Positions 3,733 through 32,995 of a DNA stretch of 64,000 bases are shown one piece after another. The notes under the pieces are model-generated. The model saw only the letters and a program-made list of their open reading frames with translations. It ran no database searches and was not told the DNA's origin. The position numbers were made by a program, and so were the translations under genes. Each line of letters opens with the position of its first letter. Within the stretch, counting starts at the first letter, position 1. Source of the stretch: Chitinibacter sp. GC72 (lineage in GTDB: Bacteria; Pseudomonadota; Gammaproteobacteria; Burkholderiales; Chitinibacteraceae); assembly GCF_009760905.1 (NCBI RefSeq), contig NZ_VIRW01000004.1:39665-103664 (forward strand), read 5' to 3'.

Positions 3733-4617
3733 TCAGGCGCGCAGCAAATCCGCAATCATCTGCCGCGCCTGCCCCTCGTAGCCGCCGCCGAATAAATTCA
3801 CATGGTTCACGATGTGATACAAGTTATATAAAGTTTTGCGCTGCGCATAGCCCGCATCAATCGGCCACGCGGCGTGATAGGCGGCCAAAAAGCGCGAGCC
3901 AAAGCCGCCGAATAACTCGGTCATCGCCAAGTCGCATTCGCGGTCGCCAAAATAGCAGGCCGGATCGAACACCACCGGCGTACCGTCCGCTAGCCCCGCC
4001 GCATTGCCACTCCACAAATCGCCATGCAGCAAGCTCGGCTGTGGCGTGTAGTCGCGGAAAAATTCGGGGATTTTATCGAGTAGCTTTGCACCCGCCGCGC
4101 CAAAATCACAGCCATTTTGCCGTGCCAGCTTGAACTGCGGCAGCAATCGTTCCTCGCGCCAGAAATCAATCCAGCTATCGTGCCAGCGATTGCTTTGCGG
4201 CGTGCTGCCGATGGTGTTATCCATCTCCCAGCCAAAGCGCGGCGCACCCGCCGGAGCAATCCGATGCACGCGCGCCAAGGCTGCGCCCATCGCCGCAGGG
4301 TCGGGCGAGCCCGCCAGCGGCAAATATTCCAAAGCCAGCCACGCCGTAGCCGCCCCGCTCACCCCATGCGCCATCGGCTGCGGCACGCGCATCCCCTGCC
4401 CCAACGCCGCCAGCCCCGCCGCCTCGGCGACAAACATGTGATGCAGCGCCGCGCGATTGGTCTTCACAAAATACTGCCGCGCTGGGTTGGCGCGATCACT
4501 GATCACCAAGGCCTGATTAATACAGCCGCCCCCCACGCTGCGCTGTTGCTTCACGTGAAACACCGCGCCAGTGGTGGCGGAGATGGCGGATTCGAGGTCG
4601 GAAATCAAATGAGGCAT
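3733..4617 (-). CDS. Fructosamine/ketosamine-3-kinase family protein
   Basis: Kinase-like fold with HGDLWSGN catalytic-loop motif and the DP.CYFGDRE.DLA motif typical of FN3K. Probable start MPHLISDL (ORF track extends to 4743). Confidence 0.75.
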   Translation of the reverse strand: MPHLISDLESAISATTGAVFHVKQQRSVGGGCINQALVISDRANPARQYFVKTNRAALHHMFVAEAAGLAALGQGMRVPQPMAHGVSGAATAWLALEYLPLAGSPDPAAMGAALARVHRIAPAGAPRFGWEMDNTIGSTPQSNRWHDSWIDFWREERLLPQFKLARQNGCDFGAAGAKLLDKIPEFFRDYTPQPSLLHGDLWSGNAAGLADGTPVVFDPACYFGDRECDLAMTELFGGFGSRFLAAYHAAWPIDAGYAQRKTLYNLYHIVNHVNLFGGGYEGQARQMIADLLRA

Positions 4618-4798
4618 GGTGGCCGTCGCCAGCAAGATGGGGATGCAGTGATTGTAGTGCGCGGGTGTTGAGCGTGTTTTGCGCCAGGCTAAGATGTTGG
4701 GTGGGCATCGTGTGGCAAGCCTTGTTTTTCTCTCCTGCATCAACCCATAATTACCGCTCGCTGACTCAGTTTGATTGACGATTAAAAGGAAAAGCCGA

Positions 4799-5185
4799 AT
4801 GAAAAGTAATCCAGTTGCTTGGTTTGAAATTTATGTTCAAGACATGCCCCGTGCCAAGGCATTTTACGAATCGGTATTCCAAGGCTCATTGGAGGAATTA
4901 AAGAATCCTGATCCCGAAGGGTTTCCTGAGATGGAAATGTGGGCATTTCCAATGTCAATGGAAGACTCTGGTGCCGCTGGCGCACTCGTAAAAATGGCGG
5001 GCTGCCCATCTGGCGGCAGCACGATGGTTTATTTCGCGTGTGAGGATTGTGCCGTGGAGGCCGCACGAGCAGCTGCCAATGGCGGCGAAATCTTCAAGCA
5101 CAAAATGTCGATTGGCGAGCATGGCTTTATCGCGATGGTGGTCGATACCGAAGGCAATATGATTGGCCTTCATTCAATGCAATAA
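4799..5185 (+). CDS. VOC/glyoxalase-bleomycin resistance family protein
   Basis: Motif NPVAWFEIYVQDMPRAKAFYESVFQ is typical of PhnB/VOC proteins. The ORF track starts at 4775; MKSNPVAWFEI is the likely start. Confidence 0.7.
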   Translation: MKSNPVAWFEIYVQDMPRAKAFYESVFQGSLEELKNPDPEGFPEMEMWAFPMSMEDSGAAGALVKMAGCPSGGSTMVYFACEDCAVEAARAAANGGEIFKHKMSIGEHGFIAMVVDTEGNMIGLHSMQ

Positions 5186-5207
5186 GTGGGATCGTAAAGT
5201 CTCGTCG

Positions 5208-5262
5208 GGCGGGTTAGCCGAAGGCGCGCCCCAAACGAAGTCCCCTTGGGGGATAACCCGCC
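5208..5262. repeat. 55-bp GC-rich self-complementary element (left copy), ends GGCGGGTTA...TAACCCGCC
   Basis: Sequence ggcgggttagccgaaggcgcgccccaaacgaagtccccttgggggataacccgcc. Its inner part is the reverse complement of the copy at 8302-8357 (~93% identity). Confidence 0.8.
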
Positions 5263-5361
5263 AATGAGCATGCGATTCAATAGCACCGATCAGCGCAGGT
5301 CGCTACTGCCCTATTCGGCTTCTCGGGCATGGCTATCTATACCCAGTTCTCGCATTTGTTC

Positions 5362-5392
5362 CCCCCTTCGCCGAAGGGGGGCTAGGGGGATT
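5362..5392. repeat. GC-rich hairpin (REP-like): ccccccttcgccgaagggggg
   Basis: Perfect 10-bp stem ccccccttcg/cgaagggggg seen directly in the sequence. Confidence 0.6.
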
Positions 5393-5757
5393 TCTGCACT
5401 TATTTATGCTGCTGCGGTGTCGTTACACGAATAAATCTTAATGGCTGGCGTTGTAGCGCCTGAATTGAAATCCATTCTGGGATTGATCATGCCCACAATG
5501 GGTTTTTGTTTGCTTGCTGGTAGCCATTCTCAATGAGGCTGGTGCGAGTTATTGGCGCGGGATTTTTTGAAAGGAAGCGATGGATTCGGCTTAAGAATAA
5601 TCAGAAATCACTTTAAATTTAGCTGACATACGGTAGTTGGATCGGTACGATATCAGCACGTCATCAGGGCAAAAATACATCAGTGGGTATGGGGTGGCAG
5701 CCGATAATCGATATGGCCTTCAGCGACATACCCCTTAAATCAAGTCTGGATCGCAAA

Positions 5758-6105
5758 ATGAGAAAAATCCTATTGCTGATTGCATTACTCGCGATGGCCA
5801 GCGCCCAAGCTGGCGTGGTCGAGCAAACCACCCGCGAAGCTGGGCGCGGTTTTGCCAAGGGCATAAACGAAGGAACAGCGCAAGCATTTGAAAAAATGCT
5901 CGATAACAACGACAAACGAATGAAACAAAACGCAGCGGACGCCAAACGCAAGCAGCGTTTGGCGAATATTAGTGGCTGCGCGACCAATGCGAAGCGTACT
6001 TCATGCAAGTGCTTTGATAAGCAGGGATCGATTGAGACGATTCTGGATGAGAAGCAGTGTATGGAAGTGGTGAATCGCGGGTTGGCGGCAGTGAATGATT
6101 TTTAA
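5758..6105 (+). CDS. Small secreted/periplasmic protein (signal peptide, 4 Cys), first gene of island operon
   Basis: MRKILLLIALLAMASAQA signal peptide, then a Lys/Asn-rich mature region with CATNAKRTSCKCFDKQG...C. AT-rich codon usage. The ORF track starts at 5683. Confidence 0.5.
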   Translation: MRKILLLIALLAMASAQAGVVEQTTREAGRGFAKGINEGTAQAFEKMLDNNDKRMKQNAADAKRKQRLANISGCATNAKRTSCKCFDKQGSIETILDEKQCMEVVNRGLAAVNDF

Positions 6106-6128
6106 AGTGATTCTGGGATAGCGAGTGA

Positions 6129-7223
6129 ATGAAACGACTAAGTAGGTGTAATAAACAAAGATTAATCCGTTTGGCAAAAATTAGAGCTAATCACAAGAGT
6201 TCTAGAATAAAGAAAAAAGTATTAATTGGCTACATACTCAATGGTACTGGTTTTGCTAAAAAGAAAAGAAGCTCTTATGTTACTGTGAAAATTGTGGCTC
6301 CAATATCATTTAACTTGTATCAGGCCGCACGTAGGCAAAATTTAATAGTTTTTATTGATGAGATAAAAAGAGCGATTAAAGCAAATGCTTCAATCAGAAT
6401 AGATTTTAGTCATGTAAAGAGATTGAATCCGTGTGGTACAATTTTATTTATTGCTGAATTAATGAGGATTATTGAGCTGAAAGGCAATAAACAGCGGGTT
6501 ACTTGTACTTTGCCGAAAGATAAGATTGTTGAGCAGCTATTTAAACATGTAGGTATTTTAGACTTACTTGGTTGCAGAAGTAATGTTGTTGTTCAGCATG
6601 AAACAGTAAAACACTGGACTTTATGTAAAGGAGATCTTGTTGATTTGTCTGGGTTAAAAAGCTTAAAAGATAAGTTAGATATTGAATTGGGTGAAGAAAG
6701 AAGTTTTGCATTATTCACAGGCATACAAGAAGCGATTACTAATACGGTTCATCATGCATATATTGAGGAACGTGGAGATGGCTTCGATGCATCAAGTAAA
6801 AAATGGTTCCTTTTTGCAAAGCACATGGAAGGTCAGGTATCATTAGCAATCTGTGACTTAGGCATCGGGATTCGTCGATCATTGCCGAGAAAAATGCCAT
6901 GGCCAAAACAAATTTTTGATGAAACGCTTGAAAAGTTGGGTGCAAATACAGATCTCGATGCTAAGCACATAAAGGCGGCAATTATGTTGGGTGCAACCAG
7001 AACAGGACTTAGTAATCGAGGGAAAGGTTTACATGACATGAAACATGTTGCGAGCTTGTGTGAGAATGGCCGTTTGGATATATTGAGTAATAAGGGTGTT
7101 TACCGCTTTAGCAAGAAAATAAACTCTGAAATTATTCTTGACCATAAAAGTAATATCCAAGGCACTATTGTGCAATGGGGATTTAATACAAGTGATTATT
7201 TAGGATCAGAAAATGCTGATTAA
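6129..7223 (+). CDS. GHKL-superfamily ATPase / RsbW-SpoIIAB-like Ser/Thr kinase domain protein with unknown N-terminal domain
   Basis: C-terminal half carries N-box GIQEAITNTVHHAY (compare RsbW EAVTNAIIHGY), G1-box LAICDLGIGIRRS and G2-box SNRGKGLHDM. The N-terminal ~190 aa have no recognisable motif. Confidence 0.7.
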   Translation: MKRLSRCNKQRLIRLAKIRANHKSSRIKKKVLIGYILNGTGFAKKKRSSYVTVKIVAPISFNLYQAARRQNLIVFIDEIKRAIKANASIRIDFSHVKRLNPCGTILFIAELMRIIELKGNKQRVTCTLPKDKIVEQLFKHVGILDLLGCRSNVVVQHETVKHWTLCKGDLVDLSGLKSLKDKLDIELGEERSFALFTGIQEAITNTVHHAYIEERGDGFDASSKKWFLFAKHMEGQVSLAICDLGIGIRRSLPRKMPWPKQIFDETLEKLGANTDLDAKHIKAAIMLGATRTGLSNRGKGLHDMKHVASLCENGRLDILSNKGVYRFSKKINSEIILDHKSNIQGTIVQWGFNTSDYLGSENAD

Positions 7224-7533
7224 TATAGCTAAGGATTTTTCACCATTTGCTGCTGGTCGTTATCAGACTGATGGGCCCTGCTCTGGTGAAGCTTTTCGAG
7301 ATTTAGTTCTTGTTCCTAAACTTGAGCAACATAAAATGGAATTGGTGACTGTTAATTTAGATGGCACACTAGGTTTAGGTTCATCTTTTTTGGAGGAAGC
7401 ATTTGGTGGCTTGATCAGAAAGGGATTTAAGAAAGATTATTTACACTCCTATTTGATAATTGAGTGTAAACATCAATCTTATGTTGATGCCGCATGGTCA
7501 TATATCGATGGTGCAAATAATGATGGAAAATAG
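7213..7533 (+). CDS. STAS-like (DUF4325-type) small protein, putative antagonist/partner of the GHKL kinase
   Basis: 106 aa, overlaps the upstream gene by 11 nt. Motif LVTVNLDGTLGLGSSFLEEAFGGL resembles STAS-like DUF4325 proteins that occur next to HATPase_c proteins. Confidence 0.6.
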   Translation: MLINIAKDFSPFAAGRYQTDGPCSGEAFRDLVLVPKLEQHKMELVTVNLDGTLGLGSSFLEEAFGGLIRKGFKKDYLHSYLIIECKHQSYVDAAWSYIDGANNDGK

Positions 7534-8035
7534 TTGGTTTGATTTATATCGCTCTGTGATTGCACCTACTATTGCTATTGTCTTGGTTGTTATTGGATGG
7601 TTATTGGTTTCTAGAGACAATAATAGACGTGAGTTGAGAAAAGAGCTTAGAGGTATTTCATCCGAAATAGGTAAATTAGGCGAAGTTCTTTCGGAAAAGT
7701 GTTATCAATATTTCTCATCTGTAGAGGATGAAGATAAAAGATATCAGCTGGCTTTCGAAATTAAGACGGTTTTGGATAAAATTGAAACGAGTTTTTGTGG
7801 TATGTCAAAAATCAATAAAAACTTCAAAAATGAGTTTCTGGTTTTGAATTTGAGGGGTGCGGTTACTAATAACCAGTTTTTTGAGACGGCTAACTTTAAA
7901 CGACTTGATGCTCGTGATCAGATTCATTTGAATATTAAATTGAAAATTAAAGATATTGAAACTCATATTGACGAGGTTATTTTAAGAACGTATGTGATCA
8001 ATGGTGTAAGAGATTTTTTCTCTTTTTCAAACTGA
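7522..8035 (+). CDS. Membrane-anchored hypothetical protein (single N-terminal TM helix, coiled-coil/Lys-rich cytoplasmic part)
   Basis: ATG overlaps the stop of the previous gene (aATGAtggaaaatag). TM helix VIAPTIAIVLVVIGWLLV. The ORF track frame starts at 7460, but MMENSW at 7522 is the coupled start. Confidence 0.55.
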
Positions 8036-8104
8036 TGTTTACCTGCTGGTATTCTGTACAGACGCACAGAATCAATTTGAATCCAACATCCAATGCGATG
8101 TATG

Positions 8105-8128
8105 AACCGCCAGTCATGGCGGTTTTTC
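8105..8128 (+). terminator. Rho-independent terminator closing the island operon
   Basis: aaccgcca-gtca-tggcggtt followed by tttttc, 70 nt after the 8035 stop. Confidence 0.7.
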
Positions 8129-8301
8129 TTTGCTTGTAGTTTGTGATCAGGCAGCCCGAGTTCGACTGTTGGCGACGTAAATCCTTGATTTTATTAAGAG
8201 CTGTTTTAAAACGTGCCACTACATTACCCAGAATTTCGTATCTTTTTGATTCTTATACGGATTTTAAAAAAGATTGTTATTCGTGAGTGCTCGGGCTGAA
8301 T

Positions 8302-8357
8302 GGCGGGTTATCCCCCGAGGGGACTTCCTTTGGGGCGCGCCTTCGGCTAACCACGCC
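8302..8357. repeat. 56-bp GC-rich self-complementary element (right copy, inverted relative to 5208-5262)
   Basis: Sequence ggcgggttatcccccgaggggacttcctttggggcgcgccttcggctaaccacgcc is the reverse complement of the left copy with ~4 mismatches. Confidence 0.8.
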
Positions 8358-8584
8358 CTACCGCTTTCTTATTTGCCGGTGGTGTGTGGGTGGGGCTAGG
8401 GTTGTTTCTTGTTAAAGCACTGGTGGGTATTGGCTTGTAGCTATTTATCTATATGTCTTGCATGGCTATACCCTGGGTTGCTGTGTTGGCTGTTGCGGTG
8501 TGGCGGCGTCAATCTGTTTGGGCAAGGTGGTGCGCGTGATACGGCGTAGGATGTATCGCCGCAGGCAAAGACATTCTCTAAGGC

Positions 8585-8638
8585 ATGCCTGCTGCCACTT
8601 GGCGTATCGCGCTGCGCGTTCAATGCTCCCTGCCGTGC
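8585..8638. repeat. Intergenic repeat family copy R1 (~50-75 bp)
   Basis: tgctgccacttggcgtatcgcgctgcgcgttcaatgctccctgccgtgc aligns with copies at 9619-9692 and 10195-10271. It ends 1 nt before the stop codon of the 8639..9511 gene. Confidence 0.65.
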
Positions 8639-9511
8639 TTAGGCAAACACCGATAGATTGCCGCTGCTGGCTAGGCTGGCTAGGCTGGCTTCGCCGCTGG
8701 CGCTGTAGATTGCGCCGCCTTGCTGTATCGCAATTTGCGCTTGCTCATCGGCCACGCTGGCTTCGGCTTTTTGTACCGCTTCTGTGATGTCCTGCAGGCT
8801 TTTTTTGGCCGCGCGCAGCTCGCGCTGATCCATTTCGGTTTTGAGCTGGCGGTTTTCCATGGCCAGCAATTGCTTCAGTTTGTTGCTCAGCTTTTTCACT
8901 TCGGCAAAAAATTCCTTATCACCCGCATCACCTGCCCCACCTGGCCGCCGCTCTGCCGGGCTTTGTGTGCCATCGGCGCGCTGGCTGTCGGTTTTCTCGG
9001 TGGATTTTTCGCCGGATGGTTCGCTGTGTGTTGCGCTGGTTTTTTCGTCGCTGCTGGTTTGCTCGCTGGCTGATGTGCTGCTTTCTGCCAACTCGGCGGC
9101 TGCGCTGGCTGGCTCGCTGCCCGCTTGCCCGGCGGTGGCGCTCTGGCTGGTATTGCTTGTGTTGCTGGCGCTGTCACTGGCGGTCATGCTCGCGCCTGCG
9201 CTGCCGCCGTATTGCGCCACCAGCGCTTTGAGCTCTTTGGCCAGCTCGGCCACCAGGCGCGGATTGCCTTTGCCGATGCCAGCAAAGCGCATCATGTTTT
9301 CAATCCGCTGTTTGAGTTCGGCCATGCGGGCTTTGGCGGCGCTTTTGCGGTCTTGCACGGCTTGGGTGTTGATCTCTTTTGCGCGCGAGAAAAAATCGAG
9401 CCCAATTAGCTTGGCCCCACCTTTTTCGCCCTGCTGCCGGGTATCGCGCTGATTGTCGGGCCGGGCAAGCTGGGTGAGCAAGGGCTTGAGCTGGAATTGG
9501 ATCGGGTTCAT
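8639..9511 (-). CDS. Hypothetical protein with Ser/Thr/Ala-rich low-complexity centre and coiled-coil ends
   Basis: 290-aa ORF with N- and C-terminal predicted coiled coils and a central S/T/A/E-rich linker. No catalytic motifs. Confidence 0.5.
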   Translation of the reverse strand: MNPIQFQLKPLLTQLARPDNQRDTRQQGEKGGAKLIGLDFFSRAKEINTQAVQDRKSAAKARMAELKQRIENMMRFAGIGKGNPRLVAELAKELKALVAQYGGSAGASMTASDSASNTSNTSQSATAGQAGSEPASAAAELAESSTSASEQTSSDEKTSATHSEPSGEKSTEKTDSQRADGTQSPAERRPGGAGDAGDKEFFAEVKKLSNKLKQLLAMENRQLKTEMDQRELRAAKKSLQDITEAVQKAEASVADEQAQIAIQQGGAIYSASGEASLASLASSGNLSVFA

Positions 9512-9618
9512 CGCAGGGCCACCTTTATCGTTGATCCCTACTGTATCGGATGTCTTTGTGAAAGCTATAGGTCAATATTTGGCTGATTCTGACTGCAGTA
9601 CGGCGAACTGCCCCATGC

Positions 9619-9692
9619 AATAAGCGCAACCACCGTTTGCCTGGCTGCCACTGGGCGTATTGCGTTTCGCGTTCAATATTCCCTACCGTGCC
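9619..9692. repeat. Intergenic repeat family copy R2
   Basis: aataagcgcaaccaccgtttgcctggctgccactgggcgtattgcgtttcgcgttcaatattccctaccgtgcc is ~80% identical to R3. Confidence 0.7.
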
Positions 9693-9696
9693 GGGT

Positions 9697-10134
9697 TTAC
9701 GGCAGCAGCGTATGCAGCGTGATTGCGCCCATGGCAAAAATCACGGTGGGCGCGGCCAGCAGGTTGAACGGGGTGTTGACGATGACGCGCTGGTTTTTGA
9801 CCGCCAGCTTGATCGGTTCGCCCGCTCGGTATAGATACACCAGCAGTGAGTTGTCGGCGATATATTCGGCTTCATGCTGGCCGGGGCTGCGGTAGGCGAT
9901 TTTGAGATGTCTGGATTTCGTGCCTTCGGTGAGCGAATTGCGCGTTACCACGGCTTGTACGGTGCCGGTGATGTGGGTGGCGGTGAGGACAAATCTGATC
10001 CGGTAGGCCAATAGCCATAATGCCAGCACAATGCAGCCGTAGCCGATCAGGGTGAAATACAGCGTCATGTTGGCGTCCACAATTTGGGTAGTGAGTGAGG
10101 TAAGGCTTGGGCTTTTGGGGCTTTTTTCGGCCAC
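9697..10134 (-). CDS. Small membrane protein (DUF3592-like: TM - beta-rich domain - TM)
   Basis: Probable start MTLYFTLIGYGCIVLALWLLAY (near 10068). C-terminal TM LLAAPTVIFAMGAITL. Confidence 0.5.
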   Translation of the reverse strand: MAEKSPKSPSLTSLTTQIVDANMTLYFTLIGYGCIVLALWLLAYRIRFVLTATHITGTVQAVVTRNSLTEGTKSRHLKIAYRSPGQHEAEYIADNSLLVYLYRAGEPIKLAVKNQRVIVNTPFNLLAAPTVIFAMGAITLHTLLP

Positions 10135-10194
10135 CAGTCCAGCACATTAGTAGCGTATTGGCTGTGGCTTGTCTAGCACGGTACGCCGCCTGTA

Positions 10195-10271
10195 ATAAGC
10201 GCCACTGCCGTTTGCTTGGTCGCCACTGGGTGTATTGCCGCGTTGCGTCGAATACCCCCTACCTTTCTGCC
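10195..10271. repeat. Intergenic repeat family copy R3
   Basis: aataagcgccactgccgtttgcttggtcgccactgggtgtattgccgcgttgcgtcgaataccccctacctttctgcc. Confidence 0.7.
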
Positions 10272-10415
10272 TACAGGCCACTCCCCCATCCTCAGCGGTG
10301 CAATTCGCTGCGCTCAGTGCACCCTACTCCTGCTCAATACCCTGTCACGTATCAGGCTGAAACTCAGTATGAATATGGCTTCTGCGCCAATACCCATCAC
10401 CTCCCGCCAGCTCAA

Positions 10416-12005
10416 TTATTCCTCCGCCTCCAGCTCGCCAAACAAATCCGGCTGGGTTTGGCTGGGGGTGATTCGTTGGGTTTTGCGGCGTTGGCCGTGG
10501 CGGGCTGGGCTGCGGCTGCCGTGTTTTTGGTAGACGGCTTTGGCTTGTTCGCGCAGTTGGGGCTGGCTGCGCCGCCAGTCGCTAATTTTTTGCTTGGCGG
10601 CGTGCAGCGAGGTTTGCCAATCTACCACCGGCCACGGATAGTCGCGGCCGAGGATGCAGCCGGCTTCTAATTGAATCGCCGGCGGCATTTGCCATGGCTC
10701 GAAGATGCACCAGTCGGGCACGCGGCGTAGCGCGGGTAGCCAGTGGCGGACAAATGCGCCGCGAGGGTCGTGTTCCTGGGCTTGTTTGATCGGGTTGTAA
10801 ATGCGCAGCGTGTTGATGCCGGTGACGCCCGATTGCATTTGCACTTGCGGGTAATGAATGCCCGGCTCGTAGTCGAGAAACAGCCGCGCTAGCCGGGCGG
10901 CGGGTTGTGGCCAGTGTAGCCATAGGTTGTAGCTGGCAAAGCTGACCAGCATGGCGCGCATGCGAAAATTGATCCAGCCGGTGTGGCGCAGCATGGCCAT
11001 GCTGGCGTCGATCAGCGGGTAGCCGGTTTCGCCATTGGCCCAGGCCTGAAAATGCGCGCGGTTGAAGTCGGCTTCGCGCAGGCCGGCGTAGCCTGCGTGC
11101 TGCGGGGCGATTTCCAGCTCGGGCTCGCTTTCGAGTTTTTGCATGAAATGGCAATGCCAGTGCAGCCGGCTTTCAAAGCTGCGCAGCGAGGTGCGCCAAC
11201 GCTGCTCGGCGGCTTGTTCGGGCGATAATTGCGCGACGCGCCGCCGCGTGGCTTGCACAATTTCGCGCAGCGATAGACAGCCAAAGCTCAGGTACGGCGA
11301 TAGCCGCGAGCAGGCCGATACGGCTTTGAGCGGGCTGGAAATGCCGCCGCGATATTGTCCGCCGCGCTCGAATAAAAACGCCTGCAGCGTGGCCACCGCA
11401 GCGCGCCGGCCGCCGTGCTGGCGGGCGGCAAAGTCGCTGTCCCACAGCCGCAGCGGGATTTGGTCGATTTGCTCAATCGTCGGGTGCGGCCAGTGCGCTA
11501 GCGCGGCGTCTTGGGCGCTGGTGACTTTGGGCGCGGTAGCGGCGGCGAGGCGCTCGCTCCAGTAGCCATGCCAGTGGTCGCGATTGCGTAGCCGACGCAC
11601 TACGCCATTTTGTGGCCATTCTTGCCACGGTAGGCCTTGCTGCCGACACCAGTCGCCCACTGCGCGATCACGCGCAAAGCTTGCCAGATTGCCGGTTTCT
11701 TCATGCGAATACAGCCCCGCCAGCGGCACTTGGCTGTGCAGCCATTGCAAGGCATCGCGCATTTCGCCATGAAATAGATACAACCGCAGCCCGCAGCGCT
11801 GCAGATCATGCGCCAGCTCTTGCAGACATTCGCGCGCAAACCCCCAATGGCCTGCGCTGTAGTCGGGCTGGCTTTGCTGGCTAGGCTCGATGCAATACAA
11901 CGCCAACACCGGCCCACGCTGGCTGGCTTGCCACAGGGGCCAGTGATCATGCAGGCGCAGGTCTTTTTTAAACCAGACCAGATGGATGGGGGTATTGATG
12001 GGCAT
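10416..12005 (-). CDS. Cryptochrome/deoxyribodipyrimidine photolyase family protein
   Basis: N-terminal photolyase alpha/beta domain (IHLVWFKKDLRLHDHWPL) and FAD-binding domain (TG.P..DA.MR.L..TGW..NR.R). Unusual basic C-terminal tail. Confidence 0.8.
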   Translation of the reverse strand: MPINTPIHLVWFKKDLRLHDHWPLWQASQRGPVLALYCIEPSQQSQPDYSAGHWGFARECLQELAHDLQRCGLRLYLFHGEMRDALQWLHSQVPLAGLYSHEETGNLASFARDRAVGDWCRQQGLPWQEWPQNGVVRRLRNRDHWHGYWSERLAAATAPKVTSAQDAALAHWPHPTIEQIDQIPLRLWDSDFAARQHGGRRAAVATLQAFLFERGGQYRGGISSPLKAVSACSRLSPYLSFGCLSLREIVQATRRRVAQLSPEQAAEQRWRTSLRSFESRLHWHCHFMQKLESEPELEIAPQHAGYAGLREADFNRAHFQAWANGETGYPLIDASMAMLRHTGWINFRMRAMLVSFASYNLWLHWPQPAARLARLFLDYEPGIHYPQVQMQSGVTGINTLRIYNPIKQAQEHDPRGAFVRHWLPALRRVPDWCIFEPWQMPPAIQLEAGCILGRDYPWPVVDWQTSLHAAKQKISDWRRSQPQLREQAKAVYQKHGSRSPARHGQRRKTQRITPSQTQPDLFGELEAEE

Positions 12006-32639: not shown

Positions 32640-32995
32640 AACAAGGGGAGCAGCCCAAGATTGCGGCATTTCCTGTTGTTCCCGCTGATGCGCGGAGAAC
32701 CGGACACCGGCGGCATTGCTGCGGTGGCTCAATGCGCCACACCGGGTACTGCGTGTTTCGTTCGTATGCCCTTGCAGGCGTGGAGCGGGAGTCGAACCCG
32801 CGACAATCGGTTTCATCAACCGAGGCTCTATCCAGTCTGAGCTATCCAGAGGTGGTGAACCGGGAATCGAACCCGGATAACGCAAACCATTGCCATCACC
32901 GTTATGCAGGAGATCATCGGGCGGTATACCCACTGGCAAAACGCCAGCAGTACCGGAGCGGGGTGAGAGCCGCTACCTGTTGCCGGTCAGAGCCG
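32640..32995 (-). ncRNA. Y-RNA-like (YrlA-type) structured leader RNA containing tRNA-mimic modules
   Basis: Minus-strand sequence between the sigma54 start (~33003) and the SPFH gene. It contains ...GGCAATGGTTTGCGTTATCCGGGTTCGATTCCCGGTTCACCACC followed by a near-complete tRNA-like unit with D-arm AGCTCAGACTGGATAGAGC, anticodon-like arm TCGGTTGATGAAACCGA, T-arm GCGGGTTCGACTCCCGC and a shortened acceptor. No ORF. Confidence 0.55.

Follow-up and report, generated by a model that had tools for sequence, protein, structure and literature searches.

Within a 64-kb stretch of the genome of Chitinibacter sp. GC72 (64,000 nt of contig NZ_VIRW01000004.1, hereafter the window) lies a cassette of three genes, named B, C and D here, for a kinase-like protein, a small STAS-like protein and a membrane protein; a fourth gene, A, precedes them on the same strand. 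Gene A (5758-6105, plus strand) encodes a predicted secreted protein of 115 amino acids (aa) with four Cys residues. Gene B (6129-7223, plus) encodes a 364-aa protein that consists of a basic helix, a STAS domain and a GHKL domain of the SpoIIAB/RsbW type and resembles VapK and CapK. Gene C (7213-7533, plus) codes for a 106-aa STAS-like protein of the DUF4325 type that resembles VapS, and gene D (7520 or 7523 to 8035, plus) for a single-pass membrane protein of 171 or 170 aa, the putative effector. The initial annotation of this DNA had described four codirectional, closely spaced genes, and both the open reading frames (ORFs) and the NCBI annotation of the strain agree with it. The latter lists A, B, C and D as consecutive genes, all of them singleton proteins, and names C a 'STAS-like domain-containing protein' and the other three 'hypothetical'.

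A and B are 23 nt apart. B and C overlap by 11 nt (7213-7223), exactly as had been noted before. The 4-nt ATGA overlap that had been assigned to C and D, on the other hand, proved to be a frame misreading. The 3′ end of C reads AAT AAT GAT GGA AAA TAG, and since its stop codon is the TAG at 7531-7533 and not the ATGA at 7520-7523, the two genes share 14 nt if D starts with the ATG at 7520, or 11 nt if it starts with the ATG at 7523. Beyond D, a pattern scan and RNA folding located a hairpin with a T-rich tail at 8104-8135 (plus strand) that fits an intrinsic terminator, as postulated earlier. The hairpin itself (8104-8125, GAACCGCCA-GTCA-TGGCGGTTT) begins 69 nt past the stop codon of D and has 9 bp, 5 of them G-C, and a loop of 4 nt; it is present in the minimum-free-energy fold, and the 110-nt stretch has a z of -2.6. 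The region from 6100 to 8150 forms a sharp island of low GC content, in which the value drops from about 0.55-0.6 to 0.32-0.37 over B-C-D (B 0.35, C 0.37, D 0.32; window 0.55).

Two kinase-STAS systems described by Chambers et al. (EMBO J 2026, PMC13373217) serve as points of reference, and the VapK, CapK, VapS and CapS sequences used for comparison were taken from the appendix of that paper. CapK, which has a helix-turn-helix (HTH)-STAS-GHKL architecture, is switched on by single-stranded DNA (ssDNA) and phosphorylates Ser54 of CapS, a STAS protein with a winged HTH (wHTH), thereby de-repressing adjacent immune operons (PMC13373217). The vapKSC operon encodes VapK (STAS-GHKL), the antitoxin VapS (STAS with a short tail) and the PIN toxin VapC; the phosphomimetic VapS variant S48E releases VapC, and against one phage the system protects by about 2 logs (PMC13373217).

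In B, a basic N-terminal helix (residues ~1-45) is followed by a STAS domain (~50-165) and a SpoIIAB/RsbW-type GHKL kinase/ATPase domain (~170-355). The predicted structure is confident (predicted local distance difference test, pLDDT, 89.7) and displays the long N-terminal helix, the STAS and the GHKL domain in this order, with a single long basic helix at residues 6-37 ahead of the STAS domain. The first ~45 residues have a median net charge of +14 and start with M-[KR]-[RK]-L-S. When 161 homologues from a set not selected on B were compared, E201, N205, D243-x-G245, R297-G298-x-G300 and T346 turned out to be invariant or nearly so. The Glu and Asn of the N-box as well as the G1 and G2 boxes, and with them the catalytic and ATP-binding residues expected of a VapK-type GHKL domain, are intact. 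An alignment of profiles (hhalign) matched the B family to VapK over both domains (probability 91%, E 1e-6) and to CapK (probability 94%, E 2e-7), at ~20% identity between B and VapK. In the same alignment F54 of VapK stands opposite R98 of B, in a column occupied by K, R, E, L or S in the 161 homologues, where at ~20% identity the register may be off by a few residues. With 1,958 representatives at 50% identity that reach E <= 1e-30 against the B profile, the family is large, and B belongs to phrog_3364 of PHROGs, a family with no assigned function. A sequence search of the PDB with B alone returned nothing useful, Pfam gave no HTH match in B, and the N-terminal extensions of longer B homologues (P0152, P0171) contain no Pfam domain. 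We also considered whether the STAS domain of B is a duplicate of C, and rejected this notion, as hhalign of the two family alignments found nothing. In two genome loci (L071, L076) a B-like ORF occurs in two parts ~1.1-1.3 kb apart, which suggests insertions or pseudogenes in some copies.

C matches the Pfam family PF14213 (DUF4325) with an E value of 2e-9 and 37.4 bits at a cut-off of 23, which bears out its designation as STAS-like in the initial annotation. VapS is itself a DUF4325 protein (E 3e-17), so that both belong to one Pfam family. The motif G-S57-S58-F-L-E-E-x-F-G-G-L-x-R is invariant in C relatives and occupies the place where VapS, CapS and SpoIIAA have their phospho-acceptor serine; in an in-register alignment S57 of C is opposite S48 of VapS, and S58 opposite S54 of CapS. 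With 106 aa, C comprises the STAS domain only, and its alignment to CapS is confined to the STAS strand and helix. Searching the PDB with the C sequence alone gave nothing useful; with the C profile there was a marginal STAS match (E 0.17), and the VapS and CapS entries were unmatched at E <= 10.

D carries one N-terminal transmembrane (TM) helix, which ends in G-W and is followed by a strongly basic stretch, and the membrane anchor that had been predicted for the last gene is thereby confirmed. A Lys-rich coiled-coil tail had been claimed as well; the coiled coil is at best a candidate feature, and D is not particularly rich in Lys, with 13 such residues in 170 aa. The juxtamembrane motif R-R-E-x-R-K-E-x-R is conserved, and the remainder is helical with a few conserved positions (Y63, T115, F120). 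Among the D homologues, the median Kyte-Doolittle value of the TM segment is 1.78, and the net charge past it is positive in all 76 sequences scored. According to the positive-inside rule, D should therefore adopt an N-out, C-in topology. D has no match in Pfam, PADLOC, NCBIfam or PHROGs, and its structural model is all-helical but of low quality (pLDDT 44, predicted template modelling score 0.29, from an alignment of 5 sequences), and was not used for a fold search. In a word-indexed search D as a single query found itself alone, and a D profile found 6 proteins. D evolves fast, and its homologues were therefore recovered by their position in the loci.

To what extent the three genes belong together becomes clear from the comparison of related loci. 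A scan of 185,579 species genomes with the C motif yielded 257 relatives, of which the best 80 loci were analysed; for viruses, 182 contigs of IMG/VR contain a relative of C, and again the best 80 were analysed. B lies directly upstream of C in 77 of the 80 genome loci. D was detected by profile in 63 of them, and most of the others have an ORF of 140-190 aa with an N-terminal hydrophobic segment. In the viral loci, B is present in 76/80, the other four being cut by the contig end, and D in 66/80. Altogether, the order B-C-D recurs in ~150 fetched loci, among them temperate phages, plasmids and islands with integrases, and six B homologues that we looked up (30-44% identical) all have the same layout. 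The junctions are conserved, too: B-C and C-D each have a median spacing of -4 nt across 69 related loci, with B-C within +/-40 nt in 66 and C-D within +/-60 nt in 67 of the 69. The initial annotation had read the tight coupling as a sign of a toxin-antitoxin (TA) or defence module. Save for the 4-nt ATGA at C/D, this is supported: the genes are indeed tightly coupled, and the TA/defence reading fits VapKSC (PMC13373217). B and C even occur as one fused ORF in an alphaproteobacterial metagenome-assembled genome (L056, 6882-8306), and the phage protein family phrog_5816 represents a B-C fusion with a DUF4325 domain at positions 341-428 of its 441-position profile. These fusions support a physical partnership of B and C. 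A deviating locus was found on plasmid pPLMAXa of Pseudomonas sp. PLMAX (L025, ~7971-8930), in which a C relative has no detectable B upstream and is followed by a 192-aa ORF that lacks a hydrophobic N-terminus; the locus may be degenerate or may encode another effector.

The surroundings of the trio point to mobile elements and prophages. Marinobacter phage AS1 has it directly behind the gene of a CI-type HTH repressor and divergent from a cro-like gene. In a Kerstersia prophage it overlaps the stop codon of the gene for an S24 repressor, and BrnTA lies downstream. Francisella phage KIRK has been described with CI, then a 293-aa protein, a DUF4325 protein and a TM protein (PMC7924643). An S24 repressor gene lies directly upstream in the same direction in 18/80 viral and at least 6/80 genome loci. 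The trio adjoins an integrase gene in Achromobacter, stands beside genes for Rep3, a relaxase and type I restriction-modification (R-M) on small plasmid contigs, and is also found in Pseudomonas, Acinetobacter and Chromobacterium. Genes for integrases, type I R-M, BrnTA and MazEF are among its neighbours, as is an antirestriction gene. A sigma-factor or PP2C gene is not found beside the trio in the window, and the 25 most frequent families listed for the two genes closest to it on either side (out of 120 and 118 families with matches) contain none of this kind. B-C-D is a self-contained, horizontally mobile three-gene module, which in Chitinibacter sp. GC72 is present as a stand-alone low-GC chromosomal insertion.

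As in vapKSC, the three genes of the cassette form an operon that begins with the kinase, continues with the STAS protein and ends with the effector, a putative one in the case of D. Its kinase combines STAS and GHKL domains without an HTH, and the B profile matches VapK; the Ser at the beginning of helix 2 in its small DUF4325 STAS protein is conserved; and its distribution is patchy and mobile. It differs in that the third gene encodes a single-pass membrane protein with no PIN domain, whereas VapC is a PIN toxin. Furthermore, B has a conserved, highly basic N-terminal helix of ~45 aa that is absent from VapK and CapK, the aromatic ssDNA-contact residue is not evidently conserved in B, and the B-C-D cassette is frequent in prophage immunity regions. 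With CapK/CapS it shares the STAS-GHKL kinase and a STAS protein, here the putative substrate, whose acceptor site bears an S-S-F motif, but B lacks the N-terminal HTH of CapK and C the C-terminal wHTH of CapS; C therefore cannot be a CapS-type repressor. Moreover, B and C are followed by D alone and a terminator instead of a CBASS, Bub or Thoeris operon, and the related loci are alike in this respect. The combination of a GHKL Ser-kinase of anti-sigma fold with a STAS antagonist is shared with SpoIIAB-SpoIIAA and RsbW-RsbV. The trio differs from these systems and from SiaB-SiaC in that it has no linked sigma factor, PP2C phosphatase or diguanylate cyclase. The B kinase is, in addition, fused to a STAS domain of its own, and the cassette is mobile or prophage-borne and not part of a core regulatory circuit, as the anti-sigma modules are. 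Finally, the position directly downstream of and codirectional with a prophage repressor, together with the combination of a cytoplasmic sensor and a membrane protein, recalls cI-rexA-rexB of lambda. Yet B, C and D have no Pfam match to RexA or RexB at E <= 1, RexB is polytopic whereas D is single-pass, and Rex has no kinase-STAS pair; the resemblance to RexAB is an analogy of genomic context only. In the literature on DUF4325, on STAS proteins and partner switching and on phage defence we found no description of the trio or of a membrane protein as third gene, and the study of Chambers et al. was the sole relevant one. Their search retained only loci with vapC, and the words 'transmembrane' and 'DUF4325' are absent from their paper (PMC13373217). 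Judged by its sequence, B-C-D looks like an undescribed membrane-effector relative of VapKSC.

From these comparisons it is reasonable to propose, and in our estimate somewhat probable, that B-C-D works like the kinase-controlled TA anti-phage system VapKSC, with a membrane protein as output that replaces the PIN nuclease. What the sequences show is the gene order, the tight coupling, the fold and homology of B and C, the conserved catalytic and acceptor residues, the anchor of D and the carriage by mobile elements and in prophage immunity regions. By analogy to the known systems, C would bind membrane-anchored D in the unperturbed cell and hold it inactive. An infection-associated cue would activate B; in CapK and VapK this cue is ssDNA, and in B the conserved, very basic helix at the N-terminus is a candidate for a sensor of nucleic acids. 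Activated B would then phosphorylate C where STAS helix 2 starts, on the invariant Ser57 or Ser58, as the homology to VapS and CapS suggests. Phosphorylated C would let D go, which could damage or depolarise the inner membrane, so that growth would stop and the infection would be aborted. Because temperate phages place the cassette directly behind a CI/S24 repressor gene, it would presumably be made along with the repressor in lysogens and act as a superinfection exclusion system, as rexAB does for lambda. From homology and context we infer the activity of the kinase on C, the binding of C to D, the toxicity of D, the trigger and the protection against phages, and on these grounds a kinase-gated module of the TA type, with D as membrane effector, for abortive infection or superinfection exclusion is the best reading of the trio.

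Several points weigh against it. No similarity of D to a known toxin or pore former could be detected, and it is assigned the effector role because it is the only remaining gene, its structure prediction having failed (pLDDT 44). Despite their common membership in DUF4325, the profiles of C and VapS match weakly (E 0.003), and the invariance of the acceptor motif is partly imposed by the search, as GSSFLEE was contained in the retrieval pattern. PADLOC v2 (PADLOC-DB v2.0) gives no match for B, C or D at E <= 1, known defence genes are few among the immediately adjacent genes, and a phosphatase that could reset the switch is not present. The trigger is the least secure step of the mechanism. 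The aromatic residue required for activation by ssDNA (W68 of CapK, F54 of VapK) is located, in the register obtained, opposite R98 of B, at a position with K or R, and for this reason the trigger of B may differ from that of CapK and VapK. One could go further and envisage a new exclusion system, widespread and carried by prophages, that uses a phosphorylation switch to gate an unknown family of single-pass membrane toxins, with B sensing infection through its polybasic helix and not through the ssDNA-binding aromatic pocket of CapK and VapK; we regard this more specific version as tentative and rather doubtful.

The same genes could, in principle, have another purpose. The trio might be a regulatory partner-switching module by which temperate phages and other mobile elements steer their own decisions, such as maintenance or induction of lysogeny, the timing of lysis or plasmid behaviour, and not immunity against other phages; D would then be a membrane target or an input for signals, and no toxin. 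Such a role would agree with the frequent location of the trio in the immunity region next to CI/S24 repressors, with the resemblance of B to the anti-sigma kinases of developmental and stress switches, and with the fact that CapK/CapS itself is a regulator and not an effector. However, C (106 aa, STAS only) lacks the DNA-binding wHTH domain of CapS, and the trio is not accompanied by a sigma factor, a transcription factor or a phosphatase. In addition, not every copy of the cassette belongs to a prophage; it occurs on plasmids, too, and inserted on its own in a chromosome, as here, so an autonomous function fits better than a phage-specific circuit, and we consider the regulatory module unlikely. 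Equally improbable, in our view, is a module for addiction or post-segregational killing that has no part in phage defence and stabilises the plasmid, prophage or island on which it resides. In it, D would be the stable toxin and C the labile antitoxin. The carriage on mobile elements and plasmids beside the TA pairs BrnTA and MazEF, the tight, TA-like coupling of the operon and the behaviour of VapS-VapC as a bona fide TA pair (PMC13373217) would all be expected of such a module. Yet a strictly conserved, dedicated kinase with intact catalytic residues argues for activation by a signal and not for passive decay of an antitoxin, and the characterised relative VapKSC protects against a phage, although the two roles are not mutually exclusive.

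A third alternative concerns gene A, which the initial annotation had regarded as part of a four-gene operon, with the secreted four-Cys mini-protein as a periplasmic partner of the kinase, STAS and membrane proteins. The features of the protein itself hold true: the N-terminus is signal-peptide-like (MRKILLLIALLAMASAQA), and the four Cys residues are at positions 74, 83, 85 and 101. A is codirectional with B at a distance of 23 nt, and both A and B-C-D are enclosed by two copies of a 67-nt inverted repeat (5204-5269 and 8295-8361). The sole sigma-70-like match on the plus strand upstream of A and B is at 5623-5651, a weak match to the consensus (9/12), and the number of such matches in the region is not above that in shuffled sequence. 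Since a pattern scan found neither a promoter-like site nor a terminator between A and B, A may be co-transcribed with B-C-D in Chitinibacter sp. GC72. On the other hand, none of 89 related loci (L001-L089), 86 of them B-C-D loci, has a homologue of A, which is a singleton cluster at 90% identity and has no family match above threshold in Pfam, PADLOC, NCBIfam or PHROGs. The GC content of A is 0.50 versus 0.32-0.37 in B-C-D, and elsewhere the gene upstream of B is a repressor gene, an integrase gene or something unrelated. By these sequence criteria A is not a conserved component of the cassette, and the conserved unit consists of three genes, B-C-D. The notion of a periplasmic partner is thus not supported; the four-gene model appears already largely refuted by comparative genomics, and we deem it very improbable. 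All three alternatives, the regulatory switch, the addiction module and the four-gene model, rank below the VapKSC-like reading of the trio.

If B-C-D indeed acts as a membrane-effector relative of VapKSC, the CapK/VapK kinase-STAS pair would gain a third kind of output. This would strengthen the view that the pair is a portable sensor module of bacterial immunity. It would also suggest a candidate function for a large family of hypothetical proteins, which includes phrog_3364, many DUF4325 proteins and an unnamed family of membrane proteins. In the more specific version with a family of membrane toxins, kinase-STAS pairs would constitute a general sensor module with exchangeable effectors, namely a repressor, a PIN nuclease or a membrane protein, and the cassette would be a functional counterpart of lambda RexAB whose signalling chemistry is defined. 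With three small genes and a cultured carrier, Marinobacter phage AS1, the trio would also offer a tractable system for how prophages exclude competitors.

As regards the flanks of the island, the two copies of the 67-nt inverted repeat are 91% identical with one indel, and each copy is itself a hairpin. They are the only two copies in the window and bracket exactly the segment with A and B-C-D. A target-site duplication is not visible at the repeat, and the repeat is absent from the syntenic locus of C. tainanensis (L092, 16 kb around its VOC gene). It could represent the ends of a non-autonomous mobile element or an intergenic element resembling repetitive extragenic palindromes. The part of the window syntenic with C. 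tainanensis extends as far as 5188, where the VOC gene ends. This gene (4799-5185, plus; GC content 0.49) encodes a protein of the VOC/glyoxalase family that falls into a 90%-identity cluster of 356 sequences from Acinetobacter, Thauera and Chitinibacter, and it looks as if it had spread horizontally in its own right. An Rfam scan of 4500-10500 gave no credible RNA family.

Downstream of the island, two genes on the minus strand code for a 290-aa protein rich in Ser, Ala and Glu (8639-9511) and a 145-aa protein with hydrophobic segments (9697-10134). Neither has a family match, and neither gene is found in the C. tainanensis locus. Intergenic repeats of a second family, with 81-85% identity, form the pairs 8586-8638/9638-9691 and 8424-8475/27827-27878 and sit just downstream of the stop codons of the neighbouring minus-strand genes. 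Farther along the window, ARAGORN assigns to a tRNA-His at 32777-32851 (minus strand) the anticodon 'atg' and not the usual GTG.

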